Part shown: positions 5,599 to 24,300 of the stretch, in pieces
Layout of the letters: every line of letters begins with the position of its first letter
Position numbering within the stretch: the stretch's first letter is position 1
Source: an uncultured Anaerolineales bacterium
Lineage (GTDB): Bacteria > Chloroflexota > Anaerolineae > CG2-30-64-16
Assembly: GCA_964647225.1 (NCBI GenBank)
Contig: CAZYHE010000002.1
Span: 1,655 to 34,787 of the forward strand
Length of the DNA stretch: 33,133 nucleotides
Reading direction: 5' to 3'
Notes under the pieces: model-generated
What the model was told of the DNA's origin: nothing
The model's database searches: none
What the model saw: only the letters and a program-made list of their open reading frames with translations
Translations under genes and position numbers: made by a program

Positions 5599-6171
5599 CT
5601 ACCCGATGCGAAAGTGTCCGATGAGGTCGTCGAGCAGCTCGATACCGATCCCGGGCCGCTCGGGGAAGGCGATGACGCCATCGCTCACCAGCAGGCTCAC
5701 GTCCTGGATCGCCTTGATCTGCGGCGATCAGTAGACCTGGCTGGGCGCGTACTCGATGTACGGTGTGACCGGCGAGATGGCGGCCAGGTGGACGGTGGAT
5801 GCTCCGAGGATTTAGGTTGACCAGTTACCAGGGCAGACGAGCACCCCGCGCGGCTGCGCCAGCTCGACGATCCGCCTGGCCTCGGTCAGCCCGCCGCAGG
5901 TGATCATGTACGGCTGCGCCACCAGGACGCCGCCGCGATCCATCAGGTCGAGGAATTCCCAACGCGTCGTGGTGTGCTCGCCGGCCGCGATGCGGATGCG
6001 CGTCTGCTGAGCCAGCCGGGCGTAGGCGTCCAGCGAATCCACCGGGAAGCGGTTTCCCAGACCCTCCGCGACATCGCGGCTGCGACCGCGGCGGCAAGCG
6101 GCGAATAGATCGTGACGTTGTATTCCCAGGCCTGTCGTAACCATCCGTTTGCTACCAGGTGAACGCGTCAA
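5599..6171 (-). pseudogene. Decayed, N-terminally truncated enolase-superfamily (mandelate racemase / muconate lactonizing enzyme-like sugar-acid dehydratase) gene
   Basis: Minus-strand translation gives ...IRIAAGEHTTTRWEFLDLMDRGGVLVAQPYMITCGGLTEARRIVELAQPRGVLVCPGNWST*ILGASTVHLAAISPVTPYIEYAPSQVY*SPQIKAIQDVSLLVSDGVIAFPERPGIGIELLDDLIGHFRIG*. This is one continuous frame with in-frame stops at 5812-5814 (TAA) and 5728-5730 (TGA). Only the C-terminal half of the barrel is present, and the remnant abuts the AraC stop codon. Confidence 0.7.
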
Positions 6172-7031: not shown

Positions 7032-7042
7032 ATCGCTATGCC

Positions 7043-7741
7043 TCACCACGCGATGAACATCTCCTGTGTCACCTGGCTACCAGGCGGCACAAGGAGGAAA
7101 TCGTCGCCCAGCCGCAACAGGTCGCCGGGCGCGGCCAGAAGACGCGGCAAGTAGGCTTCCGATCCCAACCTTTCCTCGTAGGTCCAACCCAGATGTCCCC
7201 GCATGAAGTGCGCGATAGTCTGGGCGCGCGACCGGTACGTCTCAAGCTCTTCCTGGTCGCCCGCGATGAAGACGAGCCGGCTGTAGTGGCCATATATCGT
7301 CTGCAAAAGCCAGTTCGCCTGCTCTTCGCCGTAGGCCGCGAGGTGCCTGGCATAGTTGCTCATGGGGTTGTTGGCGCCTTCCAGCCAGCCGGTGGTCAGG
7401 AAGTAGATACCGGGATCGGCCTCCAGTTGGGCGCGTCGCGCGGCCTGAGAGCCAAGGTAGAGTGCGATGCAATCGTCGGCGCGCGGGATGATGAGGGTGT
7501 GACGGCCGCTTTGCAGGCCGTGCAAGCCGTTCCCACACAGGCCGTAGCCGATCAGGACCAGCGATGGTTCAGGCAACGCCTCAAGGGCTGCCTGAAGCGC
7601 CCGGGTGATCTTCTTGGGTGTGTCATGCAGTCCTTGATCCAGAAAAGTGACCGGCGTCGCGCCGAGCCACTTGCAGAGGCTGCTCTCGAATACGCGACAG
7701 GCGATCACTACGACAGGGCGATGCGCTATCTCAGCAGACAT
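7043..7741 (-). CDS. DUF1638 domain protein
   Basis: ORF 7043..7825 trimmed to ATG 7741. The pattern VVVIACRVF...FLDQGLHDTPKKI...LVLIGYGLCGNG...LIIPRADDCIALYLGS...YFLTTGW matches my recollection of DUF1638. Stop at 7043 lies 11 nt before the AraC ATG, or overlaps its GTG. Confidence 0.6.
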   Translation of the reverse strand: MSAEIAHRPVVVIACRVFESSLCKWLGATPVTFLDQGLHDTPKKITRALQAALEALPEPSLVLIGYGLCGNGLHGLQSGRHTLIIPRADDCIALYLGSQAARRAQLEADPGIYFLTTGWLEGANNPMSNYARHLAAYGEEQANWLLQTIYGHYSRLVFIAGDQEELETYRSRAQTIAHFMRGHLGWTYEERLGSEAYLPRLLAAPGDLLRLGDDFLLVPPGSQVTQEMFIAW

Positions 7742-7805
7742 ACACGAATCTCTCTGAAACCCCACTTCGTCATCACGACAGAACGAGGCGATCTTATCAC
7801 AGCAC

Positions 7806-7853
7806 CGCAATATTCTACAAGACACGCGCCGGGCTGTCTTGTAGAATATTGCG
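7806..7853. promoter_or_regulatory. Perfect inverted repeat (19-bp arms, 10-nt GC spacer) in the divergent DUF1638/permease intergenic region; candidate operator and mirror-image promoter pair
   Basis: CGCAATATTCTACAAGACA cgcgccgggc TGTCTTGTAGAATATTGCG. The arms are AT-rich in a GC-rich context. On each strand the palindrome reads AAGACA-17 nt-TAGAAT: plus strand -35 at 7819-7824 and -10 at 7842-7847; minus strand -35 at 7835-7840 and -10 at 7812-7817. Confidence 0.5.
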
Positions 7854-9273: not shown

Positions 9274-10605
9274 TCACCTAGGCAGCCCATGATCGTCGAG
9301 CAACTCCGGGGGGATCTTGTTGATGCGGATTTCCGAGGTTTTGTTGGCATACACCACATATGACTCCCCCGCGATCTCGTAGAACTGCGGATAGCAGATC
9401 TCGGTATCCCGGAACGGGCCGCCCGGCACACGGTCGTTGTACAGGATCACCTTGGGCGCGGCGAAATAAAGCCCGGCATTCTCCGACACGCCCGGCGCCT
9501 CCCGACCCACCGCCACCCACAGCGGATCGCGCGGATACCAGCCCGAGCCCTGGGGCACGACGTTATGGAACAACAACACGAAGCGGCCATCGGCCGTCTT
9601 GTGGATGGGGCACGGTGCGCAGGGCTGCGACAGTGGCTCACCGCCTGGGCAATAGCGCAGCACCTCCGGCGCGGCCCAGGTCCGGCCGCGATCCGCGCTG
9701 ACGCTGAAATAGGGATGGCCCTGCCGGGTGCGGAAGACACACAGCAGACGTCCGCCCGACAGGCCAACCACGGTCGCTTCCTGGCCGAAGTGCCGCGCGG
9801 TCTCTGGATAGGGCACCCAGAGTCCGGTATCCCCTTCCGGCAAGCAGCGAAAACGCAGGTGGGCAGGATCGGTCTCGGTCAGGAGGTTCTCGCACTCCAC
9901 GAGCCACGCTTCCGTCTCCCAGGCGTTGGGGCTGCCGCCCTGGATCGGCTCGGGCGCGTTGGCGGGCGCGTCCACCGGGCGGAGCCAGCGGCCCTCTGCG
10001 TCCAGACACCAGCCGGGCGGGAACAGCGTAGACCGCCGGATCTTGTTGAAGGTGAAGATCACCTGCCCGGTGGGCAGCAGCCGCGGCTGGCCGAAGATCC
10101 AGAGGTGGATGTCGCCTCCGGGATCGTCCACCGCGGTGCGCGGCACCCGCAGCTGGTAGCGCTCCGACCAGGTGTAGCCGTCGTCATCCGAGTAGCGGAA
10201 GAACAGGTCGCCGGCATCACGCAACGGCACGCCGTGGATGTTGTAGCCGTAAAAGGTGTAGACGCGGCCGGTGTTCGGCACGACGAAGATGCTGATCCAG
10301 GCCGGCACGCAGTAGGCGCCGGCAGCCTCTTCGATCGCGATCTCCCCGCTCCAGGTATGACCCCAGTCGCTGCTGCGCGCGATGACCACCCGCTGATCGC
10401 GCTCCGCTTCGTGCGAGCCTTGTGTCCAGACGCAGAGCCAGGCGCCGGATCGGGTGACCGCCAGTTGGGCCTGGTAGTTGAAAGCATAGCGCCCCAGCCC
10501 CGGCAGCTTGACGATGCCGTATGCATCGGTCACGTTCATGGACTTGGGGTGCAGAACGTCCTTGGGCAACGGCCCGGTGGGCGGGGCATTGAAAACGACT
10601 CCCAT
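9274..10605 (-). CDS. BNR/Asp-box repeat beta-propeller, sialidase-like glycosidase (family unresolved)
   Basis: ORF 9274..10641 trimmed to ATG 10605 (AGGAGG at 10615-10620 on the minus strand). Three Asp-boxes (SxDxGxTW): SSDWGHTWS, SDDDGYTWS, SADRGRTWA. No signal peptide by eye. Confidence 0.7.
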   Translation of the reverse strand: MGVVFNAPPTGPLPKDVLHPKSMNVTDAYGIVKLPGLGRYAFNYQAQLAVTRSGAWLCVWTQGSHEAERDQRVVIARSSDWGHTWSGEIAIEEAAGAYCVPAWISIFVVPNTGRVYTFYGYNIHGVPLRDAGDLFFRYSDDDGYTWSERYQLRVPRTAVDDPGGDIHLWIFGQPRLLPTGQVIFTFNKIRRSTLFPPGWCLDAEGRWLRPVDAPANAPEPIQGGSPNAWETEAWLVECENLLTETDPAHLRFRCLPEGDTGLWVPYPETARHFGQEATVVGLSGGRLLCVFRTRQGHPYFSVSADRGRTWAAPEVLRYCPGGEPLSQPCAPCPIHKTADGRFVLLFHNVVPQGSGWYPRDPLWVAVGREAPGVSENAGLYFAAPKVILYNDRVPGGPFRDTEICYPQFYEIAGESYVVYANKTSEIRINKIPPELLDDHGLPR

Positions 10606-10618
10606 GTGCGACGACCTC

Positions 10619-11818
10619 CTATTCAGAGCTGCGTATTTCATCCACGGCTTCCACCATCGCCGCGAAGTTCTCGGGCGGGATCGGCGGGTTGATCTCGCTG
10701 GACGTGTCTATGAAGATGCCGCCGCGCTGGAGGGCGTCCGGCTCCCGGATGATGCGGTGGACCTCGTGGCGCACCTGTTCGGGCGTGCCGCGCTCCATCA
10801 GATCCACGCCGTCCACCCCGCCGGCCCAGGTGTGCTGAGGCCACGCCCGGCGCAGCGCGACGATGTCCATCCCCAGCGCCGGCTCCAGGCAATAGAAGCC
10901 GTCCACCCCGCAAGCGACCAGGTCGGGGATCACCTGCTGCCAGTTCCCATCGCTGTGGTAAAGCACCTTCAGCCCGTAGTCGTGCCAGGCCGCGGTCAGG
11001 CGGCGCACGTGCGGGAACAGCTCGCGGCGCAGGAATGCCGGGCTGAAGATCGGCCCGCCCTTCGACGCAAAATCCTCCGCGATCAGCACCACGGGCGTGA
11101 GCGCCGGGTCGGCGATGGCGTGCAGCCGGGCAAGCTCGCAGTCGGTGTAAGCGCCGATGTAGCCGGAGATGACTTCCGGCCAGGCGTCATACAGATAGAT
11201 GAAGGTGTCCAGCCCCAGCCGATACCAGCACTCACAGAACCCAGTCTGGATCGAGAAGTCCACGATGACCGTCTCGCCGATCAGCTTCTGCAGGCCGGTC
11301 ATGTAGCGCCGGTAGTTCTCGCGCTCCTGATCGGCGTCGAAGCTCGCCTGTGCCTCGCGCGCAACCGGGACGATGCCCGGCGGGTAGCCGTAGCCGCCGC
11401 GACGGCCCAACCGCCGCATCCGTTCGGTCTTGCGCAACAGGAAGTCACGCGCACCCGCCAGGTCAGCGAACGGCCGGCGGACGATCATCGAGTGCCAGTT
11501 GTCCTGCTGGATCAGGAAGCCGTCGGCGTCCACGATCTGGCGGACGCCCAACGGCGCGACGGGCGGGAAGCAGGCATCCAGCGTCCGGCGGATGGTCGCG
11601 CAGATGTCCGCGTAGCTGTAGTCGAAGTCGCGGATCCTCTTGCCGGTGTAGCGGGCGATGACGCCGGGATTGTAGCTCAACTGCTCGTGGAGCACGGCGC
11701 GATCCACCGGCTGGTTTGCCAGCGTCCGCTCGACGCGCGCGCGTTTCGAGAGGCGATCGGCCGGAAAGAGCTTCTCGAATGACCCGTCCTGAGCGCAGTC
11801 GAAGGAATCACCGCTCAT
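10619..11818 (-). CDS. Uroporphyrinogen decarboxylase (URO-D)/MtaA-like TIM-barrel family protein, function unknown
   Basis: ORF 10619..12049 trimmed to ATG 11818, which overlaps the GH42 stop as ATGA. The C-terminal half GLKVLYHSDGNWQQVIPDLVACGVDGFYCLEP...GTPEQVRHEV resembles URO-D_like proteins. The N-terminal tail carries a family-A repeat copy (SFDCAQDGS). Confidence 0.6.
   Translation of the reverse strand: MSGDSFDCAQDGSFEKLFPADRLSKRARVERTLANQPVDRAVLHEQLSYNPGVIARYTGKRIRDFDYSYADICATIRRTLDACFPPVAPLGVRQIVDADGFLIQQDNWHSMIVRRPFADLAGARDFLLRKTERMRRLGRRGGYGYPPGIVPVAREAQASFDADQERENYRRYMTGLQKLIGETVIVDFSIQTGFCECWYRLGLDTFIYLYDAWPEVISGYIGAYTDCELARLHAIADPALTPVVLIAEDFASKGGPIFSPAFLRRELFPHVRRLTAAWHDYGLKVLYHSDGNWQQVIPDLVACGVDGFYCLEPALGMDIVALRRAWPQHTWAGGVDGVDLMERGTPEQVRHEVHRIIREPDALQRGGIFIDTSSEINPPIPPENFAAMVEAVDEIRSSE
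11786..11805. repeat. Family-A repeat copy (CTGAGC-N-GTCGAAGG unit) inside the URO-D-like gene
   Basis: GTCCTGAGCGCAGTCGAAGG, translated on the minus strand as SFDCAQDG. Confidence 0.7.
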
Positions 11819-14130
11819 CGTTCCACCACCAGCGCGGCCACATCCAGGCTCTTGACCGTGAGCACGACCTGATCCCCACGCCGCTCGAACGGCTCGCCAA
11901 GCAGGCCCCGGACCTCCCGATAGCCCGCCACATCCACCGACTCGCTGATCTTCTCCGGCGTGGGGTTCGTGAAGAGCCAGGCTTCCCGGTCTCCAGCGAT
12001 CCGCTTGCGTAGGAGCAGCCGACCGGTGTGTTCCGGCAGCACACCGCACTCAGCCAGCAGCACCCGCACCGCCGCCCGCGTTTCTGCATCCCGGTACGCC
12101 GTGCCGTTGTGCCCGACGTAGGTGCCCAGGAGCCAGGCCCGGCCCTTGCCCGCCCACCGAACTGTGCCGGCAGTCGTGGACGCCACGACGGCATCGCCAT
12201 GGCGCAGCAGCGGCTCACAGCCGTCCCCTCCGCGCCCTGAGCCTGTCGAAGGGCCTGCGCTCGGCGAAGGATCGAAAGTCTGGAGGTAAACATTCGCCCG
12301 TATCCGGTGTCCGGCCAGCGGCCCCGCGCCCTCCAGCATGATCGCATCCACGTATTCGCCCCAGGTACGCTCCGGCGGCGACCAGCGCGGCAGGCTGCCC
12401 GGCTCGCGCACCATCGTAAAGCTGCGCTGCGTGACCCCGAACAGGTCGGCCAGGGTTGGCGACAACTCGCCCCGGCGGCAGAAGCCGTGCTCGTCAATGC
12501 GGCCCGGCGCGGCCTCGCTAATCAGGTTGCCGCCGGCCTCGACGTAGCGCGCCAACTCACGCGCTACCTCCTCGGACAGGCTCAGTGGGAAGGGCAGGAT
12601 CAATGCCCGGTAGTCGCCGACGTGCGCTTCGTCCAGTTGGGAGGCTTCGACGAAATCAACCGGGATATTCAGCTCCCACAGCAGCCGATACCACCCGCGC
12701 ACGCTGTAGGCCAGGTGCTCGTGGCCCTGCGCCATCAGTTGGGTGAGCTGGTAGTTCCACTCATCAACCAGGATCGCGACCTGCGCCCAGGGCCGCGTGG
12801 GTTGGCCGAACAGGTCGGGATATTGGTTCAGCGCGTTCCCGATCCGAGCGGCCTCCGCATAGCGCGGGGCGCTGTCGCCCGCGCTGTCCAGCAGGCTGAA
12901 GCCGTTCGCCTCGGCCACGTGGATCTCGGCGCGCGTCACCCAGAACGAAAGCGCGGTGATCCCCGCGCCGACCGCGGTCAGCATCCACCGGCGCATGTCG
13001 GCGGGATCGGGCACGCGGCCCTTGTGGAAGCCGGTGCTCACCGGCCCGCCCTGGAATTCGGCCGCCCAGACCGGGTTTCCCCCCTTCGACGTGCCCTTCG
13101 ATAAGCTCAGGGTGCTGCTCAGGGCGGCGCGGCGGTTGCACGAGCGGATATAGTCGAAGCGCAGCGCCACACCGTCGGCCAACTCGGCCAGGAGGCACGC
13201 GTGGCGCGGCAGCGGTTCGCCAGCCGCAGGGCGGCCGTCGTCCCAGGGCTGGAGCGAGTTCCACGCGGGGTAGCACGATGAGCCGAGGAAATCCTGGCAG
13301 CGGGCATAGGTCCAGTCCTGCCCCGCGCCAATGATGGGCGCGCCCTTGTGCGCAAAGACCGGCCGGCCGAGCGGGTCCGCCTCCCGGATGGCTCCGGCGC
13401 GGGCGCGCAGCACATTGGCGATCTGGACGTTGTCCATGAAGTAGTGCCAGTCAATGTTCCCCGGCTGCGGGTAGCGCACCATCGCCAGCCGGTCGGGCGT
13501 CACCGACTCCCAGTCGCCATAGCGGGTGTTCCAGGCCCGGTTCAGCCCCTCCAGGTCGCCGTAGCGCGCCCGCAGCCACGCCCGGAACGCGGCGAGCGTG
13601 TTCGCGCAATAGCAGACGGGCTGGCCGGCGAACCGCTCGGCCCAGTAGCCGATCTCCTGCCAGGTGTTCCAGCAAACGATGTTCTCGAAGCGGCCCAACG
13701 TCCGCACCAGTTCCCGGATGAAGCGCAGTTGGTCCGCCAGCGCGCCCGGATCGTCGAAGCAGGGGCCGGGCTTGCCGTCGGCCGGGAGGGTGGTCTGCGC
13801 CTCGTAGGCGATGGGCAGGCCGTTGCGGCCGACCATCCGGCAGCCGGGATGCTTGCGCCACAGCCAGGGGGGCGCCTGCTCGCACGTCAGCCCCAGGTAG
13901 ATGCCCAGGTCGAGCCGGGCGGCGTGCTCGATGAGTTCCTCATAGCGCGAGAAGTCGTAGCGTCCTTCCACCGGCTCGTCAATGGCCCAGTGCTCCTGGA
14001 GCTTGATCAGGTTGAAGCCGTGGCGCTTGAGGTTTTCCATGTCCCGCTTGAGTTCGGACATGGGCGGCATTGGCTCGCGGCACAGGTGCGAGCCGATGGG
14101 AAAAAGCTCACCGAAACGTTCGACGTTCAT
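11815..14130 (-). CDS. GH42 beta-galactosidase
   Basis: ORF 11815..14175 trimmed to ATG 14130 (ATGA overlap with the upstream stop). Motifs: KRDMENLKRHGFNLIKL, WAIDEPVEGRYDF, CWNTWQEIGYW. A trimerisation-type middle region and a C-terminal domain are present. Carries two family-A repeat copies. Confidence 0.85.
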   Translation of the reverse strand: MNVERFGELFPIGSHLCREPMPPMSELKRDMENLKRHGFNLIKLQEHWAIDEPVEGRYDFSRYEELIEHAARLDLGIYLGLTCEQAPPWLWRKHPGCRMVGRNGLPIAYEAQTTLPADGKPGPCFDDPGALADQLRFIRELVRTLGRFENIVCWNTWQEIGYWAERFAGQPVCYCANTLAAFRAWLRARYGDLEGLNRAWNTRYGDWESVTPDRLAMVRYPQPGNIDWHYFMDNVQIANVLRARAGAIREADPLGRPVFAHKGAPIIGAGQDWTYARCQDFLGSSCYPAWNSLQPWDDGRPAAGEPLPRHACLLAELADGVALRFDYIRSCNRRAALSSTLSLSKGTSKGGNPVWAAEFQGGPVSTGFHKGRVPDPADMRRWMLTAVGAGITALSFWVTRAEIHVAEANGFSLLDSAGDSAPRYAEAARIGNALNQYPDLFGQPTRPWAQVAILVDEWNYQLTQLMAQGHEHLAYSVRGWYRLLWELNIPVDFVEASQLDEAHVGDYRALILPFPLSLSEEVARELARYVEAGGNLISEAAPGRIDEHGFCRRGELSPTLADLFGVTQRSFTMVREPGSLPRWSPPERTWGEYVDAIMLEGAGPLAGHRIRANVYLQTFDPSPSAGPSTGSGRGGDGCEPLLRHGDAVVASTTAGTVRWAGKGRAWLLGTYVGHNGTAYRDAETRAAVRVLLAECGVLPEHTGRLLLRKRIAGDREAWLFTNPTPEKISESVDVAGYREVRGLLGEPFERRGDQVVLTVKSLDVAALVVER
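12234..12270. repeat. Family-A repeat copy plus a degenerate second unit inside GH42
   Basis: GCCCTGAGCCTGTCGAAGGGC followed by CTGCGCTCGGCGAAGG, translated as ...SAGPSTGSGRG. Confidence 0.65.
13082..13125. repeat. Family-A repeat copy in opposite orientation, with both halves duplicated, inside GH42
   Basis: CCCTTCGAC gtg CCCTTCGATAAGCTCAGGG tgctGCTCAGGGC, translated as ALSSTLSLSKGTSKGG just upstream of the AAEFQGG segment. Confidence 0.7.
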
Positions 14131-15362
14131 CGCATCTCCTTCCAGGCCGAGATCATGGCTTCGACGCTCGACCACGGCGTGTCCGGGAAGAGCGCGTCCA
14201 CGGGCGCAAGGATGAAGCCGGCAGGCCCGAGTGTCGTCAGCGCGTGGCGCACCGCCGCCCGGATTTCATCTGCCGATCCGCTCGCCAGCGTGACGCCGCT
14301 GTTGATCCCGCCCGCGAGGGCCATCCGCCCGCCGAGTTTCGCTTTGACCGCGGCAAGATCGGCCTTGTCCTGCACCGGGTCGGCGTAGTAGAGCACGTCC
14401 ACGCCGGCCGCCAGCAGGTGGTCGGCCATCGCCAGGACGCCGGTCGTCATGGTGTACCCGAACCGGGCGCCGGCCTGATGCGCCATCCGCACGAGGCCGG
14501 CCAACGGCGGCAACAGGAAGCGCTCGAAGAGCCGCGGCGACCAGAAGTCGGTTGAGCTGTACCAACCGCGCTGCATGACCACATCCACACCGCCCACATC
14601 GAGCATCAGCTCCGTGCGGCGCCGGTCGAACGCCGAGACGATTCCCATCAGCTCACCGAAGAAGGCAGGCGCTTGTTTCGCGGCCAGCACAGCCGCCTCG
14701 ACCCCCATCAGCCACACGACCAGATCCATGCCGAACGCGCTCCAGCCCGCCACGGGCACCCCCTCGGCGTCGGCGAAGCGGCGCACGGCGGCCATGCGCG
14801 CACGGTAGGCGGACAGTTGCTCGGCAGTCGGGTCGCACAGCAGGTAGCGCAGCTTCGGCAGGTCATCCGGCCCGACCACCGCATGCCGCACCCCGCGCGG
14901 GATGTTGAAGTCCTCGATCAGCGGGACGTGGTCGGGCTGCACCACCCAGCCGGGCGGCGTCTCCTCGGCGGTGCGGCGCACGATGTGGCGCAGCGGGCCG
15001 GCCGGCGTGTCGTATTCCCGACCGAGCAAGGCGTAAGGCTGGCCGGGGGTTGGCGGTTCCTGCCAATCTCGCACGCGGACGTCCGGGTGGACGCTCCACG
15101 GCGGCGAGACCTCGATCACGTCGTCCACGCCCAGTCGGCGCCAGGCGCGCACCCGCTCGAAATCATCTTCGGGCAGGCGCCACGGCTCTGGGAGGGTGTG
15201 GATGTGTTCCAGGCGACCGGTGAACCAATGGGTCACGGCCCGGCCATCGCGCGTCCACGTCAGGTGTGCGGGCGGCGCGAAGCCGAAACACCAGCAGGTG
15301 AGCGGGACGTGGTCGGGCCGCCCGCCGCGGATGGCGGTCAGGAGGCATTCTCGTGAATTCAT
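14127..15362 (-). CDS. URO-D/MtaA-like TIM-barrel family protein, paralogue of 10619..11818, function unknown
   Basis: ORF 14127..15509 trimmed to ATG 15362 (GGAGG about 6 nt upstream). Strings: ECLLTAIRGGRPDHVP; ...GYTMTTGVLAMADHLLAAGVDVLYYADP...GSADEIRAAVRHAL. The layout parallels the other URO-D-like ORF. Confidence 0.55.
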   Translation of the reverse strand: MNSRECLLTAIRGGRPDHVPLTCWCFGFAPPAHLTWTRDGRAVTHWFTGRLEHIHTLPEPWRLPEDDFERVRAWRRLGVDDVIEVSPPWSVHPDVRVRDWQEPPTPGQPYALLGREYDTPAGPLRHIVRRTAEETPPGWVVQPDHVPLIEDFNIPRGVRHAVVGPDDLPKLRYLLCDPTAEQLSAYRARMAAVRRFADAEGVPVAGWSAFGMDLVVWLMGVEAAVLAAKQAPAFFGELMGIVSAFDRRRTELMLDVGGVDVVMQRGWYSSTDFWSPRLFERFLLPPLAGLVRMAHQAGARFGYTMTTGVLAMADHLLAAGVDVLYYADPVQDKADLAAVKAKLGGRMALAGGINSGVTLASGSADEIRAAVRHALTTLGPAGFILAPVDALFPDTPWSSVEAMISAWKEMR

Positions 15363-15502: not shown

Positions 15503-16843
15503 TTAACAACCGACCATCCCCGCCAAATCAGCCAGCGGCTGCCGCAGGTCGCCGTATGCCGCCATCCAATGGTGGCCCAACCCCTCGCGGGCGATCCAGC
15601 CGAAGATCGCCCGGTAGTCTTCCCGGAACCGCACGCGCAGCGGATTGCCAGGAAAGACCATCTCGGTGGCGATGGCCTCGCCGTGCAGGGCGGCCATGCG
15701 ATAGCCGTTCAGACCCGGCACGATGTTGAGCAGCGTCACCGGGCCGGGGCGGGCGGGGAAGAGGCAGCACAGGCCGCGATCCATCAAGCGCACCGGCCCC
15801 AATGTGATCTCTGCCGGGTTTGCGGCCAGGGAGAAGCCGCCGGAGCCGCAATGCGAGAAGACGATGGCGTTCTCGGCCGGGATCGGATCCAGGAGGTCGG
15901 TGTTGTGCACCGGCTGGCCGGTCAGCCTTGTCAGCAGCAACATGCCGAGCGCCGCGTTGATGTCCCCTTCGCACGCCACCGGGATCCCCGCCTCCCCCAA
16001 CAGCGACGCGGCCAGGCAGACCTCGCCCATCAGGTGCGGGTAACAGCCGATGGACACCGCCGAAAGGCCCAGTTCCGCGACCGTGGCGCGCAGGGCATGG
16101 GCCACCTGCAGCGACGCGATGCCGGCATCCGCCGTCGCCGTCACCCGGCCGACCTGCCCGCCGAGCGCCTGCCAATCGGACGCCAGCGGGAGCACGTCCA
16201 CCTGCGCGGCCCGCTCCAGGAAGACTTTCGTGTCCAGCCCGACCACGCGCGGCCCGAAGGTGCGTTTGAGCGCCAGCTCGTGGACGGTGGTCTCGGTCAT
16301 CCCCTCGACGCGATGGCCCAGGTGGCCGATGCGCGCCCGCCGGAGTTGGCGCGCCAGGCTCGCCGCGGCGGCGAACTCCCGCGCCCGCCGCAACCCGGTC
16401 GCTGAGCCTGTCGAAGCGTCAACCAGCCCTTCGACAAGCTCAGGGCGCGGTTCATCGAACAGGAAAACGTAGGGCCGGCCAAGCTGCTTGAGCATGAAAC
16501 ACAACTGCTGCATCCCGCACAGCGCGCCGGTCTCCATGCCGGGACGCGCCCAGGCGACGACTGGGACGGGGCACTCTTCCAGCAGATCGAGCACCAGGTA
16601 ATCCTCGAACCAGGACGCGGCGATGGCGATCACGGCGTCAACGCGCTGGTCGTAGAACGCGCGGCCCGCGGCCACGGCCGCGTCCGGGGTGGTCACAACC
16701 ATGCAGCCGGCGATCTCGATCGGCGGCGAGCCTGGGGCGCGGAACGCCACTTCCAGGCGCGCCAGCAGCGCCGGCGCGTCCCCCGCGCCCACTTCCAGCG
16801 GGCTGGCAACGGCGATCAGGCCGAGACGGATGGGTTGGGACAT
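15503..16843 (-). CDS. L-fucose/L-arabinose isomerase-like sugar isomerase family protein
   Basis: ATG 16843 with AGGAG 6 nt upstream. Motifs: SIGCYPHLMG, PVACEGDINAALGMLLL, FSHCGSGG and a C-terminal domain typical of FucI/AraA-like isomerases. Contains a complete hairpin copy of the family-A repeat. Confidence 0.65.
   Translation of the reverse strand: MSQPIRLGLIAVASPLEVGAGDAPALLARLEVAFRAPGSPPIEIAGCMVVTTPDAAVAAGRAFYDQRVDAVIAIAASWFEDYLVLDLLEECPVPVVAWARPGMETGALCGMQQLCFMLKQLGRPYVFLFDEPRPELVEGLVDASTGSATGLRRAREFAAAASLARQLRRARIGHLGHRVEGMTETTVHELALKRTFGPRVVGLDTKVFLERAAQVDVLPLASDWQALGGQVGRVTATADAGIASLQVAHALRATVAELGLSAVSIGCYPHLMGEVCLAASLLGEAGIPVACEGDINAALGMLLLTRLTGQPVHNTDLLDPIPAENAIVFSHCGSGGFSLAANPAEITLGPVRLMDRGLCCLFPARPGPVTLLNIVPGLNGYRMAALHGEAIATEMVFPGNPLRVRFREDYRAIFGWIAREGLGHHWMAAYGDLRQPLADLAGMVGC
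16401..16446. repeat. Complete family-A element (both orientations, hairpin-forming) inside the isomerase gene
   Basis: GCTGAGCCTGTCGAAGcg tcaaccag cCCTTCGACAAGCTCAGGGC. The arms are complementary with one mismatch. Translated as PELVEGLVDASTGSA. Confidence 0.75.
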
Positions 16844-16852
16844 GAGCGGCTC

Positions 16853-18250
16853 CTACGACCTGATCTCGATAGCATCGAACGTGACCCGGCCATCCTGGCA
16901 GCCGATGAAGAGCCGGTCGCCGCGCACGTCGGGCACGCGATTGACGAGGGTCCGCCGCCGATCTACGCACACGTCAATGATGTCGCCCCGGGCGATCACC
17001 GCCAGTTCGAAGGGCCGGTCCAGCCCCTCGACCTCGTAGATGGCCGCGCGCTCCTGCTCTTGGGCGTCCCCCTGGCGGAACGCCGAGACGCCGGCGCTGC
17101 CAGGACGCAGCCACCCGACCCTGCCACGGGCCGGCTCGAAGCGCAGAACCAGGCCGTCCTGATACGAGCCGGAGCCTCGGAAACCCAGCTCGAAGTTGCC
17201 AGTGCCTGGCTCGGGCCGCACTTGGACGGTCAGGCGCAGGTCGTGCGGCAAGCCCTCAAGTGCAGCGACGGCCATTCCCGCCTGTGCGCTAACATCGAGG
17301 CGGCCGTCATCCCAAGTCAGGCCCTCCGTGAGGGGCGTCACCCGCAACGGCACGGTCTCGCCGCCCGTGAGAGTCATCTCGGCCGGGAACTTCGTGCCCA
17401 AGCTGCCGTCCCCGTGCTGCACGATCTCCCGGAACACGGCGTTACCGGCGTAGGCGTGGGGTGGCTCGCTAGTGAGGAACGCGACCCCCAGGCGCCGGTC
17501 TCCGGTGAAGGCCGCGGTCTTGAGCACGGCCGCCTTCGGCCCATCGAAGATGTCCTGATTGGGGCGCAGCCACGGCCCGAACGGCCCGCGCGAGAAGCGG
17601 TAGCGCGCGACCCCCAGGTGGCTAAAGATCAGATAGTAGAAGCCGCGCCATTCGAAGTAGTCGGCGCACTCCGGCTGATGGCCAATGTTGCCCGGCACCA
17701 AGAACGGCCCTTCGTGCCGCCAGTCGCGCAGGTCGGCGGAGGTCAGGTGAGCCAGGCAGCCCCCACGGCCTGCCAGCGGGTAGTCCGCCAGCTCCGCGGT
17801 CACCAACATGTGGAAGCGACCGGTCTGGGGATCCCGGAATACGCACGGATCGCGGTAAGGGCCTTTGCGGTAGGGTGGCTCCGGCGACGCGAACGGATTC
17901 GGGGACGCTTTGGTGAAGCGGATGCCGTCAGTGCTGGTCGCCACGCTCAGGTGTTCGGTACGGTCGGGCAACCGTGTGGCGTAGAAGGCATAGAACACAC
18001 CATCATGGAAGAAGACCGATCCGGTGCAGATGGAGGCTTCCCACTCGTGTTCTATTGCCAGCGCCAGCGGATGATGCTCCCAATGCACCAGATCGCGCGT
18101 CGACGCGTGCGCCCACTGATGACCGCCCAGCCCGCCCTTGCCCTGGTGATGGCCTTCGTCCAGCAGGTAGTATAGGTGAAAGACGCCCTCATGGTAGAAG
18201 GGCATGCAATCGCCCACGAAGAAGTCGCCTGCGGGTTTGAAGTATTGCAT
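16853..18250 (-). CDS. GH32-like (clan GH-J) beta-fructofuranosidase family protein
   Basis: A five-bladed propeller signature is visible by eye. VGDCMPFYHEGVFHLYY sits at the nucleophile position, with an RDP motif (YRDPCVF) and an EC motif (PECADYF). A C-terminal beta-sandwich-like region is present. GGAG lies upstream of ATG 18250. Confidence 0.7.
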   Translation of the reverse strand: MQYFKPAGDFFVGDCMPFYHEGVFHLYYLLDEGHHQGKGGLGGHQWAHASTRDLVHWEHHPLALAIEHEWEASICTGSVFFHDGVFYAFYATRLPDRTEHLSVATSTDGIRFTKASPNPFASPEPPYRKGPYRDPCVFRDPQTGRFHMLVTAELADYPLAGRGGCLAHLTSADLRDWRHEGPFLVPGNIGHQPECADYFEWRGFYYLIFSHLGVARYRFSRGPFGPWLRPNQDIFDGPKAAVLKTAAFTGDRRLGVAFLTSEPPHAYAGNAVFREIVQHGDGSLGTKFPAEMTLTGGETVPLRVTPLTEGLTWDDGRLDVSAQAGMAVAALEGLPHDLRLTVQVRPEPGTGNFELGFRGSGSYQDGLVLRFEPARGRVGWLRPGSAGVSAFRQGDAQEQERAAIYEVEGLDRPFELAVIARGDIIDVCVDRRRTLVNRVPDVRGDRLFIGCQDGRVTFDAIEIRS

Positions 18251-18253
18251 GGC

Positions 18254-20041
18254 TCACTCCATTCCCCGGTAGATCTCTCTCAGCGCGGCGTAGGCTTGCT
18301 TGCGTTCCCGGTTGTACCCCACGATCCCCTTCAGGTTCAGCCCCGCCCAATAGCTGGTGACATGCTTCGACGGGTCGGGGTAGTCCTGGTAGAGGAACGG
18401 GAACGCGCCGCAGACGTTGGGCGCCGAGCGGAGCACCTCATAGGTCCGCTGCAAGAAGTAGGTCTGGTAGTCCTCCGACCAGAGCGCGCGGTCGGCCGCA
18501 CGGTAGCCGGGCACGGCATCCGCGCCGAACTCGGTCAGGAGGAGCGGCTGGCGGTAGGTTTGCGACTTGGCGGCCAGTTCCTGTTCGAGCCGGGAGAGAT
18601 CCAGCGCGGCGACCTCGACCGTGCGCGCGCCGTCGGCACCCTCGCCGATCTCCCGCAGCAGGGGCCGATCCTTGCCCGGCGCCGCGTTCACCCGGTCGTA
18701 CCAGCCCCAATACTCGTTGACGCCGATGACATCGGGCAACTCGCCCACCTGGCCCATCGTACCGTACAGCGAAGCGTAGCTCAGCAGGCGCGTGGTGTCG
18801 AGGCCGCGGATCGTCTCGGCCAGGCCCGCGAAGAAGGCGGGCGCTTCCGGGTGCGCGACCTTGCACTCGTTGCCCAGGCTCCAAAGGATGATGCTCGGAT
18901 GGTTGTACGCCGTCTGCACCATCTCCCGCAGCATGGCCGCGGCCAGGTCGCGGTAAGCCGGCTGGCTGAATGCGCTGCCGGACGCTTCGTGTGGGTCCAG
19001 GCAGTAGATGGGCACCTCCGACCACACCAGCAACCCGCGGCGGTCGCACTCGGCCAGCATCCGCTCGTGGAGGGGCACGTGGCAGCGGATGGCATTGACC
19101 CCCAGTTCCGCCATGTCGTCCAGGTCGGCGCGCGCGATCCGCTCGTCGTAGGTGATGCCGACCGCCGGATGATCCTCCAGGTAGCAGATGCCCTTCAGCC
19201 AGATCGGCTCGTCGTTGACCAGGATCGTCGCGCCCTCGGTGCGCACCCGGCGGATGCCGAAGGCGGTCGTCACCCGATCCAACACCGCGCCGGCGGGGTC
19301 GAGCAGGCTGGTCTCCAGCGTGTAGAGCGCGGGGGACGCCGGACTCCACGGCTGCGCGGCGGGCAATCGCCAGGGGCAGGCCAACTCGCGCACGCTGCCG
19401 CCCCCGATCATCGTCTCGTCACGCCAGACCTCCTGCCCGGCCGGGTCACGCAGGAGGAGCGCAGCGCGCAGCGGCCGGTCGTCACGCGCCGTCACGCGCA
19501 GCCGGACCTGGCCCTCGGCGCCGGGGCCGGACGGCACGCCATCCACCCCCACCCAATCCAGCCGGCCGCCGCACGCCACTTCGAGCGTCACATCGCGGTG
19601 GATGCCGCCGTAGGTGCACCGGCCCGGGCAGGCCGGCAGCAGGATGCGGTGGCGGCGGTTATCGACGCGCACCGCCAGCGTGTTCTCGCCCGCGTGCAGC
19701 AGGTGGCTGACATCGAGCGTGAACTCGGTGTAGCCGCCCGCGTGTTCGCCGGCCAGTTGGCCATTGACGAAGACTTCGGCCGCGTAGTTGATCGCGCCGA
19801 AGCGCAGCACGCCGACCGCCTCCGGCGACCACTCCCCCAGAGAGAACGAGCGGGCGAACCAGGCGACGCCTTCGTAGATGCGATAGCGTTCGGCGTACAG
19901 GTTCCAGCAGCCGGGCACGGGCACGACCTCCCAGTGCCGCCGGTCCCAGCCGGGCTGTGCGTACTCCGCGCCGGGATGGTATTGCGGCTCCAACTCCGGC
20001 AGGAAGCGCCAGAAACCGTTCAGTTCGATGATTTTTCGCAT
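18254..20041 (-). CDS. GH2 glycoside hydrolase (beta-galactosidase / beta-mannosidase / beta-glucuronidase family)
   Basis: ORF 18254..20302 trimmed to ATG 20041. Motifs: LNGFWRF...WEVVPVPGCW, VNGQLAGEHAGGYTEFTLDVS, NAIRCHVPLHERMLAECDRRGLLVWSE, acid/base ILWSLGNE and nucleophile LLLTEFG. Confidence 0.85.
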   Translation of the reverse strand: MRKIIELNGFWRFLPELEPQYHPGAEYAQPGWDRRHWEVVPVPGCWNLYAERYRIYEGVAWFARSFSLGEWSPEAVGVLRFGAINYAAEVFVNGQLAGEHAGGYTEFTLDVSHLLHAGENTLAVRVDNRRHRILLPACPGRCTYGGIHRDVTLEVACGGRLDWVGVDGVPSGPGAEGQVRLRVTARDDRPLRAALLLRDPAGQEVWRDETMIGGGSVRELACPWRLPAAQPWSPASPALYTLETSLLDPAGAVLDRVTTAFGIRRVRTEGATILVNDEPIWLKGICYLEDHPAVGITYDERIARADLDDMAELGVNAIRCHVPLHERMLAECDRRGLLVWSEVPIYCLDPHEASGSAFSQPAYRDLAAAMLREMVQTAYNHPSIILWSLGNECKVAHPEAPAFFAGLAETIRGLDTTRLLSYASLYGTMGQVGELPDVIGVNEYWGWYDRVNAAPGKDRPLLREIGEGADGARTVEVAALDLSRLEQELAAKSQTYRQPLLLTEFGADAVPGYRAADRALWSEDYQTYFLQRTYEVLRSAPNVCGAFPFLYQDYPDPSKHVTSYWAGLNLKGIVGYNRERKQAYAALREIYRGME

Positions 20042-21204
20042 GGGGTATCTCCAGATCGGCCCCGCCAGAATTGCATGCCGGGGCATTCGCAGAATTGCCA
20101 CGCCACCTCGCCGACCGGCGAATCGGGCCACGCCTGGGCCAGGATCGCCAGGCAGAGCGTGCGGAACCAGGTGGGGAACATCGCCGAGACATCCGGGCCG
20201 GAAGCCATGAGCGGGTGGCCGTAGGCGAAGGGCTGCCCGCGCATGAAGACGAAGCCGCCGTCGGGGTTCTGATTGGACAGCACCCACGGCAGCGCCCGGC
20301 ACAGCGCGGCCCGGATTTCGTCCCCGCGGTGCGGCGTCACCGTGGAGAGCCGCGCCAGCGGGTCAATGGAGTCAATGTCCTCGCATGCGCTCGAATTCCA
20401 CGGGTCGCGGCGGTTGTGGACATCCCAACCGAAGCCCCCGCGCGGATTCTGCGTGCGCAGCACGGTGTCAATCGCCCGTTCGGGGTAGGGCACCGGCACG
20501 TGGTCATAGAAAAAGAGCGGCCAGAAGTGATAGGCCGCCTGCACCTCGTCGGACAAATTGAGCGGGGCGGCCAGATCCTTGTAGCCCCACACCCCCGCGG
20601 CCGCGTCCAGGTGATGGCTTGCCAGCCAGGCCAACAGCCGGCGCATGGCATCCCCGGCCTGAGGGTGTCCCTGGAAGTCGCGCGCGTATTGCAACAGCGT
20701 GCCGACGTTCATCACCTCGTTCCCGGCGAAGGCGGGCGCGTCCCGCCAGGCGCGCTGCGCCAGCCACTCCTCGACCCCGCCGGGCGCGATGAAGGGGTCG
20801 AGCCAGGTCTGCGGCTTCTCGGCTGTCGCGCCCAGGCAGGTGAGGGCCGTGACCACGTGACACGACAGGTGCCGCCGGCCGCACCATTCCGGGTCATCCT
20901 TGTACCACCCCTCGCCGTAGATGGCCGGATCACGGAACAGGCCGTCGTCATCCTGGTGCGCCTGGAGATAGGCGATCCACGCGCGCCGATCGCGGTCGCC
21001 CAGCCCGTCCAGCTCGCCGAACAGGTGGCGCGTCATCGCGGCATAGGCCGAGGCATAGAGCACCGGCTCCGCCATGCCTTCTGCGTAGAGGTAGCGGCCG
21101 TAGGGTTCCCCTGGGGCGCGCATCCGCTCGACGTACGCGAGGGTGGCATCGCGCAGACGCGCGGCTTCTGCGGTCAGGGTACGTTGGGTAGCTTCGGTGG
21201 GCAT
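20020..21204 (-). CDS. Alpha/alpha-toroid protein with prenyltransferase / squalene-cyclase-like repeats, function unknown
   Basis: ATG 21204 (GGAG upstream); GTG 21216 is the alternative. Repeat-like strings: HQDDDGLF, QNPRGGFGW, QNPDGGFVF. The 3' end overlaps the GH2 start by 22 nt. Confidence 0.55.
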   Translation of the reverse strand: MPTEATQRTLTAEAARLRDATLAYVERMRAPGEPYGRYLYAEGMAEPVLYASAYAAMTRHLFGELDGLGDRDRRAWIAYLQAHQDDDGLFRDPAIYGEGWYKDDPEWCGRRHLSCHVVTALTCLGATAEKPQTWLDPFIAPGGVEEWLAQRAWRDAPAFAGNEVMNVGTLLQYARDFQGHPQAGDAMRRLLAWLASHHLDAAAGVWGYKDLAAPLNLSDEVQAAYHFWPLFFYDHVPVPYPERAIDTVLRTQNPRGGFGWDVHNRRDPWNSSACEDIDSIDPLARLSTVTPHRGDEIRAALCRALPWVLSNQNPDGGFVFMRGQPFAYGHPLMASGPDVSAMFPTWFRTLCLAILAQAWPDSPVGEVAWQFCECPGMQFWRGRSGDTPCEKSSN

Positions 21205-21261
21205 GGTTGGCTCCACTTCATCAATTGTAGGAACACAGATGCAATGGGGGAAGTCGCTCCC

Positions 21262-21300: not shown

Positions 21301-24300
21301 CTACGCACTTGGGCTTCCGCAGGTCGCCAGCAGACCGGTAGCAGGAAACCGCCGCGCCCCGCGACAGCGCACCGTCGTCAGCCCGTGGGCCGCGAGGGAC
21401 GCCTCGAAGGTGTGTGGCGTGCAAGGCAGCCGCGCCTGGTCTTCTTCCACCAGGTTAGTCTGCCACGCCTCGCCGATGTCGAAGTATGGCAGGCGCACGA
21501 TCGCCCGCAGATCCTCGCCCGCGGTCTCGGCCAGACGCAGGATGAGGCCGTCCCCATCCTCCGCGGCCTTCAACGTGAGCAGCACGACGCCGGGCGCGTC
21601 CACGCCGCAAAATGTATCGGATGCCGGCAGCGGGCCGTCCTGTGGGCCGATCACGTAGGCGGTCACGGGGCAGACGGCCGCCTCCCAGCCGAGGGCGCGC
21701 GACCGGGCGCGCTCGTGCTGGCCGTCGTGCGTGGTGATCGCGTAGCGGAAGAGCGCATCGGTCGCCTGCACGGGCTGGAAGTTGGTGCGGAAGTTGTTGT
21801 TCATCACATAGGAGTAGATGTGCCCGTGCCGCAGTTCCTCGGGGGCGCGCAGGAACGCGTGCCCATAGCCGGGCGGGGTGACGCCGTGGTGGGCTTGCGA
21901 GACGTAGCCGGGCCACAGGCCGCCCAGTTCAACGATGGGCGCTTCGAGGCTGCTCCACGCGACCCCGCCGGCCCGGTCGTGCATGCTCACCCAGTGCTGG
22001 ACGGCGTAGGCGTCGGTGTTGGTGCCCGGCAACTGGTCGCGGATCGGCTCGATCACCGCGTTGCTGGCCTCGTAGGCGAAATGGGGATCGTCAAGGGCGA
22101 AGGGGAAGGCCAGGTGCAGTTCGAGCAGCGGCGTGGCATCGCGCAGGATGCGCGTCGCCAGCTCGATCCGCTTCACCCCCTCGAAGAGCGTGATCTCCTG
22201 GGTGATCTGCGGGCAGCCGTGCGCGCTGCTGCGCACGATTAGGCTCGCCGCCACCGGCCCCGCGCTGCCGCGGCGCAGAGCGACGGCGCCAGTGAGGGGA
22301 TCGCCTCTGATGCTTGACTCCTGCCCCCTGACTCCTGCATCCTGACCCCTGGCCCCTGGTGGCTCAACGCCCGTGCGCGGATCGCGGACCACCAGTTGGT
22401 TGAACGGGTGCGGCGCGTGGGCGTCCACCCACTCCCGGCCAAGCTCCTTGTCGAAAATGCTGCGGATCGCACCGGTGGCCGGATCGAGCGCGACCCGGTA
22501 GAAGCGGTTCTCCAGCCAATCCTCGCCGATCCGCAGGCTGCTCGCGAACTCGGGCCAGCGGTCGCAGGGCTTGTCCTGAGCACCGCCGAAGGGCTTGTCC
22601 TGAGCAGTGTCGCAGGGCTTGCCCTGAGCGCCGTCGCAGGGCTTGTCCTGAGCAGTGTCGAAGGGCCGGAGGCGGTAGGCGCGATAGCCGAGCGGTGGGA
22701 GGTCATGGGCCAGGAAAACAAGCTCGCACAGATGGCTCCGCTGGTAGTTGAGCGCGGGATGGCTGTGGGCGTCGGTGTGGCCGAGCGCGTAGTGCTGCGC
22801 GGCCCAGGGTTGCGCAGCCAGCGGGTCGTCCAGGATGTTGACCTGGCACGGGACGACCGCGCCGGTCGCCACGTCTACCAGTTCGACTTGTCCTGAGCAC
22901 CGCCGAAGGGAGGGACGCTCCAACAGCTCGGCCGGCAGGCTGACCCACGGCCGGCCGAGGATCGAGCTGGACACGCGCTGCGCGGGCGCGCCGGGCTGGC
23001 TGCCCGGCCGCCAGTAGAACGGCCGGCTGGCCGGCTCGGCCGCGCTGGCGCGCGCCCGTACGATGGCGTCGCGCGGCCAGTTCAGCGGGTTGAAGACGAC
23101 CAGGTGATAGCCGTCATCTGGCAGCCGGACCTGGTCGGCGATGCGGTGGGCGCTCTTGGTGAGGACATCGTGCGCCAGGGCCGCGCCGCGATAGGCAAGC
23201 TCGCCCTTCTGGCTCCAGCACGCATCCTGGGCCGGCCCGATCGGTTGGGCCATGCCCCAGGTGTGCTCGTCGTAGAGCAGCGCGCAGTCGTAGGCTTCGG
23301 CCAGCGTATCGGCCGGATAGATATAGTCGCTAACCGAAGCGGCGCATGCAGCCAGCTTCTCGGCCGAGCCGAGCAGGTCGTGGGTCAGGCGGTTGACGCC
23401 GGTCTCGCGGGGCGTGCTGATCGCGCCGACCGTGTAGTCGGTGTTCGGGAGGTCGCCGCGCAGCACGGGCAGGCGGTCGCCGGCGGCCCGCTCGAATTGC
23501 TCGAAGAACGCCGTGTTGGTGGAGACGATCAGCCGGGGATAGGCCCAGCGGTCGTTCCATTCGCAGGCGATCCGGCTGAGCCGGACGTCCGGCGGCGCGT
23601 TGTCGCGGTTGGCACCGTGGAACTTCACCCGAACCAGGTCGTGCGGATAGCCGCCCTCGGTCAGCCCGGCGAGGTAGCGCGCGAGGTTGGTCTCGGCCTG
23701 GTCGCAGGTCCACAGCCCCGGCCCGCTGATGGTGCCGCCCGCATACCAGAAGAGCACCCGCTGCCCGTCCGGCCCTTCCCACCAGAACGCGCCGGGCAGC
23801 TTGCGCGGCAGGATCGCCTGCTCGTCCCAGTGCGGATGTACGGTCATGCCCCAGGCGAAGTAGTCGGGGATGCCCGCCGCGAAGTAGCGCACGCCGGCGC
23901 CGGCCAGCACGCTCGCCAGCCCCCAGGAGACACCGGGGATGTCGTTCAGTTCGGCGGAGCGGATGGGGACACCGAAGCGCCGGGCAAGAGCGAACGCGGG
24001 ATAGAGCAGCCGCACCTGCTCCTCGTGCCCGCACAGTTCGCTCGTCTCGTTGCCCAGCAGGGCGGTCAGCTCGATGCGCCCCGCGCGCAGCCAGCGCGCC
24101 AACCGCTCGACGGTCTCAGGCGGCCGGTGTTGGACGTAATGCTGCACCGACCACGCCTGCTCGATCACATAGCGGAAGCGGGCTTCCTCCGGCCAGTCGG
24201 CCGTCTCGTCGCAGCCATCCAGGACGGCATCCAGAAAGGTGTCGTGCTCGCGTAGAACGTTGCTGGGCAGGTCGGTGTAGCCCAGGTCGTGGTGCGAGCC

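Follow-up and report, generated by a model that had tools for sequence, protein, structure and literature searches.

What do two proteins with the fold of uroporphyrinogen decarboxylase (UroD) do in the middle of a string of genes for glycan breakdown? The window analysed here, a stretch of 33,133 nucleotides (nt) from an uncultured Anaerolineales bacterium (GCA_964647225.1, contig CAZYHE010000002.1), carries a gene for a distant glycoside hydrolase of the GH42 type (771 amino acids (aa), 14130..11815) bracketed by two UroD-like genes, A (411 aa, 15362..14127, with a GGAGG ribosome-binding site upstream) and B (399 aa, 11818..10619), all of the genes under study lying on the minus strand. A and B are members of two old, separate orthologous groups, which form two widespread and uncharacterised enzyme families. 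Neither is a UroD or a zinc enzyme of the MtaA type. We propose, at a probability of about 0.45, that they are orphan substrate-side methyltransferases (methyltransferase I or MT I type), which would demethylate methylated sugars or amino sugars by way of corrinoid proteins encoded elsewhere in the genome.

Fold and active-site residues

The Pfam profile PF01208 matches A with 58.4 bits and B with 50.2 bits against a cut-off of 23.9 bits, placing both in the UroD/MtaA/MetE superfamily of TIM barrels. The match covers the C-terminal half to two-thirds of the profile, from position 117 to 345 for A and from 209 to 345 for B. The AlphaFold models are confident, with pLDDT values of 91.8 for A and 88.1 for B, and for both of them Foldseek returned MtaA, the methylcobamide:coenzyme M methyltransferase (an MT II enzyme) of Methanosarcina mazei, as the first match (4ay7 for A and 4ay8 for B), followed by structures of UroD, with a probability of 1.00. 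The TM-scores to MtaA are 0.57–0.72 across both normalisations, at a sequence identity of 16–18%. The TIM barrel, the location of the active site at the C-terminal ends of the strands and the positions of the motifs are all shared with MtaA, from which A differs in an additional β-rich insertion of approximately 100 residues. An earlier note on this DNA had assigned A and B to this fold from the letters alone, and the profiles and models confirm the assignment.

Residues were mapped onto the active site of MtaA from three sources: a profile of family A against MtaA, an alignment of all 64 URO-D paralogues of the genome, and alignments of 36 A and 40 B orthologues. At the position of the LHICGN motif of MtaA, A reads YTMTTG (Thr/Met/Thr) and B reads YHSDGN (His288-Ser-Asp290), while the third zinc ligand of MtaA, the cysteine of LAPGCG, corresponds to Asp389 in A and falls in Ser-Ser-Glu (373–375) in B. 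The His-x-Cys…Cys ligands of MtaA are replaced, then, by Thr/Met/Thr…Asp in A and by His-x-Asp…Ser-Ser-Glu in B. This agrees with what had been read by eye, and the alignments show substitutions in both proteins where intact UroD or MtaA catalytic residues would otherwise stand. Since a profile search of the PDB with family B gave no match, the mapping of the ligands in B rests on the alignment of the 64 paralogues together with the fold match. A is the only paralogue of the TxT type among the 64, and B falls within the H-x-D class, which has 16 members.

Twenty-two residues past the motif there is an invariant aspartate in A (Asp328) and an invariant glutamate in B (Glu312). From the alignments, B retains a four-residue site (His288, Asp290, Glu312 and Glu375) with oxygen and nitrogen ligands and a spacing like that of MetE, and A retains only two carboxylates, Asp328 and Asp389. 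The zinc site of MetE, which in the E. coli numbering we take to be His-x-Cys with a glutamate 22 residues on and a cysteine about 61 residues further, is matched in its spacing both by B (His288, Asp290, Glu312, Glu375) and by A (Thr306, Asp328, Asp389). In contrast to MetE, oxygen ligands stand in place of both cysteines, each protein has one barrel where MetE has two, and the context points to neither homocysteine nor folate. Asp328 and Asp389 of A and His288, Asp290, Glu312, Ser373 and Glu375 of B are invariant across the orthologue alignments, and further invariant polar residues are found at the C-terminal ends of the predicted barrel strands (Arg265, Trp267, Tyr268 and Ser269 in A; Asp249, Lys253, Cys310 and Asp336 in B). 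The invariance of polar residues at these strand ends argues that A and B are real enzymes.

Gene neighbourhoods of families A and B

The surroundings of the two families were compared at 80 loci each, those of A taken from species-representative genomes and those of B from metagenomes. Genes were called, neighbours clustered and the clusters named by Pfam. Counts are given for 76 of the A loci, four high-GC loci at which antisense open reading frames (ORFs) had been picked (cluster c25) being left out, and for 79 of the B loci. Among the best 120 matches of each family the identity ranges from 58 to 96%, and the labelled ones include Chloroflexota, Terriglobia, Poribacteria and Clostridia for A, and Armatimonadetes and Lentisphaeria for B. 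At E ≤ 1e-30 family A comprises 133 representative clusters, and the labels of genomes with an A orthologue name over a dozen phyla or candidate phyla. In a sample of 250 further Chloroflexota genomes no A was found, so that the distribution of A is patchy, which suggests gene transfer.

The specific conserved partner of A is a module of an isomerase and an aminotransferase. A FucI-like isomerase, 41–70% identical to the product of the window gene, is encoded within three genes of A in 49 of the 76 loci and directly adjacent to it in 31. Also found around A are DegT/DnrJ/EryC1 aminotransferases (28 loci), xylose-isomerase-like barrels of the AP_endonuc_2 family (17), GH38 (13) and GH2 (9) enzymes, Gfo/Idh/MocA proteins (7) and B itself (6). 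The usual gene orders are DegT, FucI-like, AP_endonuc_2, A; DegT, A, FucI-like; and DegT, A, B, FucI-like. To these the loci of Spirochaetota add a PIG-L N-deacetylase and an ABC importer, and those of Acidobacteriota an MR_MLE dehydratase, a PfkB kinase and an EamA transporter.

For B, the commonest identifiable direct neighbours are GH42 orthologues (8 of the 79 loci, 50–75% identity) and other URO-D genes (also 8 loci), and genes for GH38, GH2, the FucI-like isomerase, DegT and Gfo/Idh/MocA each lie within three genes of it in 7–9 loci. The full set of GH42, B, FucI-like isomerase, A, GH2, α/α-toroid and GH38 genes recurs in Phycisphaerae, Bacteroidales, Omnitrophota, Armatimonadota and others (loci L043, L050, L069, L084, L144 and L155). 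The locus in the window is an instance of a recurrent, uncharacterised system. The linkage of URO-D-like genes to glycoside hydrolase genes, which the earlier note had proposed to follow across genomes, is conserved. GH42 itself, the partner that it had favoured for both genes, suits B, which adjoins it in about 10% of loci, but not A, whose partners are the FucI-like isomerase, DegT and the AP_endonuc_2 barrel; only B recurrently adjoins GH42 directly.

The stop–start overlaps with the GH42-like gene

Read directly from the sequence, the stop codon of A and the start of the GH42-like gene share an ATGA at 14127..14130, and the stop of the GH42-like gene and the start of B share another at 11815..11818, both on the minus strand and both exactly where they had been placed. 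They had been taken to argue for a stoichiometric or pathway tie to GH42. In a scan of the whole genome, a possible 4-nt NTGA overlap was present at 291 of 2193 same-strand neighbouring gene pairs (13%), and other junctions of the operon are equally tight, with gaps of 3, 9 and 13 nt. Since such overlaps are ordinary in this genome and the rest of the operon is just as closely packed, the two overlaps are real yet no special evidence of a link.

In other genomes that have GH42 and B orthologues side by side, the alignments of the two end approximately 20–90 nt apart with no overlap. In the window, a copy of a palindromic repeat, CCTTCGACNGCGCTCAGGAC (11786..11805, minus strand), lies inside codons 5–11 of B and gives the protein an N-terminal extension; most orthologues start just past that point, without the extension. 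With no such overlap elsewhere and the repeat so close to the start of B, nothing indicates a stoichiometric link to GH42, and from the sequence the GH42/B overlap looks like a lineage-specific packing accident. The repeat 20-mer has seven copies in the window against 0.04 expected. It belongs to a family with a unit of about 24 nt, GTCGAAGGGCTTGTCCTGAGC, and its complement, members of which lie inside the GH38, YfhO-like, GH42 and FucI-like coding regions as well as at the 5′ end of B (window positions 22561–22680, 22878–22925, 24802–24849, 12234–12260, 16399–16425 and 11786–11805).

URO-D paralogues and corrinoid proteins

The assembly (4.9 Mb, 93% complete, 756 contigs), the proteins of which have their nearest named relatives in Anaerolineae and other Chloroflexota, contains the 64 PF01208 matches mentioned above, with HxC at the motif position in 26 of them, HxD in 16, DxD in 12 and TxT in one, which is A. 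Closest-paralogue identity is about 22–37% for the five examined (A, B and those on contigs C562, C84 and C321). No bona fide HemE was found in the whole genome, where the top PF01208 match, at 222 bits, has an MtaA-like LHICGN…GCE site; many related genomes carry a HemE scoring above 400 bits. Six MtaC-type corrinoid proteins and three RACo-type activators are encoded, together with two MtmB-family genes, five MttB-family genes and one Pterin_bind methyltransferase gene beside a corrinoid-protein gene. The genome encodes, in other words, the corrinoid proteins, the reductive activator and the pterin-binding MT II on which a three-component demethylase would draw.

Of the 64 paralogues, just two, one on contig C84 and one on C562, have a corrinoid-protein gene as a neighbour. 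On C562 (80–3410) three genes stand in a row, encoding a sulfatase, a corrinoid protein and an H-x-D URO-D protein, with the URO-D gene directly after the corrinoid-protein gene. About 45 of the 120 closest relatives of this URO-D protein carry a fused B12-binding domain, either before or after the URO-D part, and FHSDG is retained in the three fused sequences that were read, so that the H-x-D substitution of B also occurs in corrinoid-coupled enzymes. This CmuA-like family has the same His-x-Asp as B, occurs in the same genome and stands in a carbohydrate-related setting beside the sulfatase. It differs from B in being adjacent to or fused with B12-binding domains and in having Ser-His-Ser at the third ligand, where B has Ser-Ser-Glu and no fusion, and B is not among its ten closest paralogues.

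On C84 (632–11290) sensor kinase genes, at least one of them with an N-terminal DUF1638 domain, are interleaved with two corrinoid-protein genes of a DHHxxG variant, and the string also holds a full-length URO-D gene reading IHLASG; this may be a corrinoid-based sensing system. A third contig, C396 (78–4839), has a corrinoid-protein gene between two MtmB-family genes, with the Pterin_bind methyltransferase gene beyond one of them, apparently a complete corrinoid methyltransferase set in a Chloroflexota genome.

Other genomes with A were searched for the same machinery. Five of them carry 18–50 URO-D paralogues each. Corrinoid-protein-sized B12-binding proteins are present in all nine tested (marginally in G003), and RACo in all five tested for it. 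With corrinoid proteins in all nine, demethylation by A is neither refuted nor proven. Among 251 Chloroflexota genomes, all 13 with at least ten first-look URO-D candidates were RACo-positive, compared with 84 of the 251 overall, the candidate count being a loose one and the related genomes not independent of each other. MttB-family genes were sought in five A-bearing Planctomycetota genomes and found in four, at 18 loci. At four of these (L177, L180, L184 and L188, in genomes G256, G260 and G261) the MttB gene has a gene for a DegT aminotransferase as its direct neighbour, and at one more (L179) a GH38 gene. Two unrelated methyltransferase families, then, occupy a similar genomic niche, which would fit demethylation. 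No corrinoid protein was found within the 1.5-kb flanks of the 18 MttB loci.

A possible role in the demethylation of sugars

Methyl transfer by A and B would be in keeping with MtaA as the closest solved structure to both models, and with MtaA/CmuA as the top NCBIfam families, albeit with scores far under the cut-offs. The UroD superfamily includes O-, S- and halogen-demethylases (bioRxiv 10.1101/2023.07.31.551370), and MT I enzymes of the superfamily are known that work without zinc, the crystal structure of CdmB containing no metal and MtvB being likewise metal-free (PMC13222342). From the loss of the H-x-C site the earlier note had taken methyl transfer to a thiol to be unlikely. With zinc-free MT I enzymes published and an H-x-D sister family fused to B12 domains, loss of the cysteines does not exclude methyl transfer in general.

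The fold, the residue substitutions, the conserved neighbourhoods and the corrinoid machinery of the genome are shown here, and from them we infer methyl transfer, the use of distant corrinoid proteins and a sugar substrate. A and B would be catalytically competent and would act in the cytoplasmic breakdown of sugars freed from a complex glycan. Each would bind a methylated sugar or amino sugar and hand its methyl over to Co(I) in a corrinoid protein whose gene lies at another place in the genome, freeing the sugar for the neighbouring enzymes, which for A would be the FucI-like isomerase and, in other genomes, the DegT aminotransferase. As neither of these could act on a blocked hydroxyl or amine, demethylation would unblock their substrates. 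In B, a divalent metal held by His288, Asp290, Glu312 and Glu375 could act on the ether oxygen in the way of zinc in MtaB and MetE, by polarising it. A, with no such metal site, might provide a scaffold for the substrate, with Asp328 and Asp389 as proton donors, in the manner described for metal-free CdmB.

The enzymes with which A and B would be compared are the MT I components of three-component demethylases and dehalogenases, CdmB, MtvB, OdmB, VdmB and MtoB. The comparison is one of superfamily and of the mechanism proposed here and not of measured sequence relatedness. Besides metal-free CdmB and MtvB, some of the known members bind zinc, and their substrates are aryl methyl ethers or halomethanes, whereas A and B sit among sugar enzymes.

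Several points weigh against demethylation. To our knowledge every characterised MT I is encoded beside its own corrinoid protein and MT II. A profile built from the corrinoid proteins of this genome, which recovers all six of them, found none in the window and none in 1.89 Mb around 171 A or B loci, and neither a corrinoid protein nor an MT II stands beside A or B in the window or at any of these loci. Fusions to B12-binding domains number 0 among the 120 closest relatives of A and 0 among the 120 of B. A ratio of 64 paralogues to six corrinoid proteins is unusual, there is neither a histidine nor a cysteine at the metal site of A, and the alkoxide of a sugar leaves less readily than a phenolate. 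The association of RACo with expansion of the URO-D family could stem from the 26 classical H-x-C paralogues and an anaerobic lifestyle, and the occurrence of several URO-D genes at one locus would fit several different chemical steps equally well.

Alternative functions

Three other functions were rejected on the evidence of motifs, scores and context. True uroporphyrinogen decarboxylases (HemE), serving the synthesis of haem or sirohaem-related compounds, would share the Pfam family name and the UroD structures recovered by Foldseek, but A and B are almost certainly not such enzymes. A regular-expression search found PxWxMRQAGR, which from PROSITE we take to be the N-terminal HemE signature with the substrate-binding arginines, in none of the 64 paralogues, and the position of the active-site histidine (His339 in the human enzyme) is taken by Asp389 in A and falls within Ser-Ser-Glu in B. 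The profile match is partial and reaches 50–58 bits, where HemE of related genomes scores above 400, and nothing around the genes points to tetrapyrroles, the window having no haem-pathway genes, as the earlier note had remarked. Methylcorrinoid:thiol methyltransferases of the MtaA/MtbA type (MT II), acting on coenzyme M or another thiol, would be expected to resemble MtaA most closely in structure and in NCBIfam family, as A and B do. That function is nevertheless very improbable, as the H-x-C…C zinc–thiolate site is missing from both proteins, the NCBIfam models for MtaA and CmuA (TIGR01463 and NF040654) give 24–44 bits against cut-offs of 235–400, the organism is no methanogen and the genes lie in a glycan operon with no adjacent corrinoid protein. 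Doubts expressed earlier about methyl transfer to a thiol were well founded. A role as non-catalytic partners or stoichiometric subunits of the GH42-like enzyme, also raised before, could account for the ATGA overlaps on either side of GH42 and for the 8 of 79 loci at which B adjoins GH42 orthologues. We consider it highly unlikely given that polar residues at the top of the barrel are invariant across phyla (Arg265, Trp267, Tyr268, Ser269, Asp328 and Asp389 in A; His288, Asp290, Glu312, Ser373 and Glu375 in B), that most A and B orthologues have no GH42 nearby, and that overlaps are common in the genome and the one between GH42 and B is not conserved elsewhere.

In the main rival reading, possible if somewhat doubtful, A and B are corrinoid-independent enzymes and convert free sugars or amino sugars in a different step, for instance sugar-acid decarboxylation, epimerisation, dehydration or deacylation. 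The UroD barrel would in that case have been put to new use, B having a metal site of oxygen ligands and A an Asp/Asp acid–base pair. The absence of a corrinoid protein or MT II from the 171 loci and of B12 fusions from both families is what such enzymes would show. A lies within a pathway-like module of DegT, FucI-like isomerase, AP_endonuc_2 and Gfo/Idh/MocA proteins, with a PIG-L deacetylase, MR_MLE dehydratase or PfkB kinase in some phyla, which would need several distinct chemistries; the His/Asp/Glu/Glu set of B is like those that hold the metal in sugar epimerases and isomerases, and UroD itself is an example of cofactor-free catalysis in the same fold. Set against this, no member of the UroD superfamily is known to act on sugars, the carboxylate-binding motif of UroD is absent, and corrinoid-dependent demethylation is favoured instead by the association with RACo and corrinoid proteins at the level of genomes and by the fusion of sister H-x-D proteins to B12-binding domains. 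In a more specific form, A and B would not be methyltransferases at all and would be the first enzymes of the UroD fold to convert sugars or amino sugars directly and independently of corrinoids, A providing the missing step of a widespread, undescribed catabolic pathway of DegT, FucI-like and xylose-isomerase-like-barrel enzymes, probably for an N-acylated or otherwise modified amino-deoxy sugar. We regard this version as unlikely, and retain demethylation through distant corrinoid proteins as our tentative proposal.

Other genes of the operon and the window

A, the GH42-like gene and B are part of one long, closely packed string on the minus strand, which runs from a YfhO-like membrane protein gene (27522..24688) down to a BNR/sialidase-like propeller gene ending at 9274. 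A 14-nt unit, GATGTACGATGTAG, is repeated in tandem about five times within the YfhO-like ORF, at window positions 26640–26784, together with 7-nt repeats of the CCTGNCC type, and this long ORF may be two genes with a repeat-rich spacer between them. The next gene encodes a GH38 α-mannosidase-like enzyme (24645..21301) with both the N- and C-terminal Pfam domains of that family, whose members are encoded within three genes of A at the 13 loci counted above. It is followed by the gene for an α/α-toroid protein of 398 aa (21216..20020), which has weak matches to squalene-cyclase repeats and orthologues of 39–59% identity at loci L050, L067, L069, L071, L078 and L084. A GH2 hydrolase with the N-terminal, middle and C-terminal Pfam domains, which recurs in A and B loci, is encoded at about 20302..18254. 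Its longest ORF, from a GTG start, overlaps the toroid gene upstream by approximately 280 nt, and the true start is probably downstream of this GTG, near the methionine of MRKIIELNGFW. Between GH2 and A lie the genes for a GH32/GH43-like five-bladed propeller hydrolase (18250..16853; PF00251, 86 bits) and for the FucI/AraA-like sugar isomerase (446 aa, 16843..15503). The last gene of the string (10605..9274), the BNR/sialidase-like β-propeller (PF13088, 56 bits, with weak sialidase matches), also directly follows B orthologues at L146 and L167.

The FucI-like protein of the window has no match in Pfam and scores 112 bits with the NCBIfam model SftI against a cut-off of 700, which does not identify it as an L-fucose or L-arabinose isomerase; one orthologue has weak matches to Fucose_iso and Arabinose_Iso. 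From its sequence, the resemblance would seem to hold at the level of the family only. The GH42-like protein matches both the catalytic domain (PF02449, 121 bits) and the trimerisation domain (PF08532, 76 bits) above the Pfam cut-offs, and its best solved relatives are GH42 β-galactosidases at E 1e-26, making it a distant member of GH42. A reading as an exo-glucosaminidase was dropped, its sole basis having been a sub-threshold match to GLMA_2nd.

A DUF1638 gene (7043..7825, minus strand; PF07796, 126 bits) overlaps an AraC regulator gene (6168–7049) and lies 1.4 kb past the operon as a separate transcription unit, so its link with the operon is uncertain. DUF1638 has been linked genetically to the reactivation of B12 (bioRxiv 10.1101/192971), and its presence beside the operon was counted as context that fits demethylation. 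It is rare, being found in one of 14 control genomes and in three copies in this genome, and is not a conserved neighbour of A or B in other loci, which makes it a local hint.

Implications

Two parts of the interpretation first given to this DNA stand, namely that A and B are neither UroD nor MtaA-type zinc enzymes and that they are linked to glycoside hydrolase genes; the coupling argument and the choice of GH42 as the partner of A do not. New here are the quantified module of A with the FucI-like isomerase and DegT, the rate at which B adjoins GH42, the absence of corrinoid proteins at 171 loci, the fusions of H-x-D proteins to B12-binding domains, the association with RACo, and the low weight to be given to ATGA overlaps. 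The literature searched yielded no paper describing UroD-fold enzymes in sugar loci or acting on carbohydrates, and we know of no oxygen-independent enzyme that takes methyl groups off sugars.

URO-D genes of this kind are common in glycan-degrading bacteria of uncultured lineages. If A and B are demethylases, their genomes would hold a hub-and-spoke corrinoid network in which dozens of orphan substrate modules feed a few shared B12 carriers, and models of the flow of methyl-sugar carbon in anoxic sediments, digesters and peat would change. If they are instead corrinoid-independent, they would bring a new kind of chemistry to a fold that has been studied well and supply a step now missing from a conserved amino-sugar pathway. 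On either reading, the module of A with the FucI-like isomerase and DegT, and the pair of B with GH42, provide concrete proteins for expression and assay.

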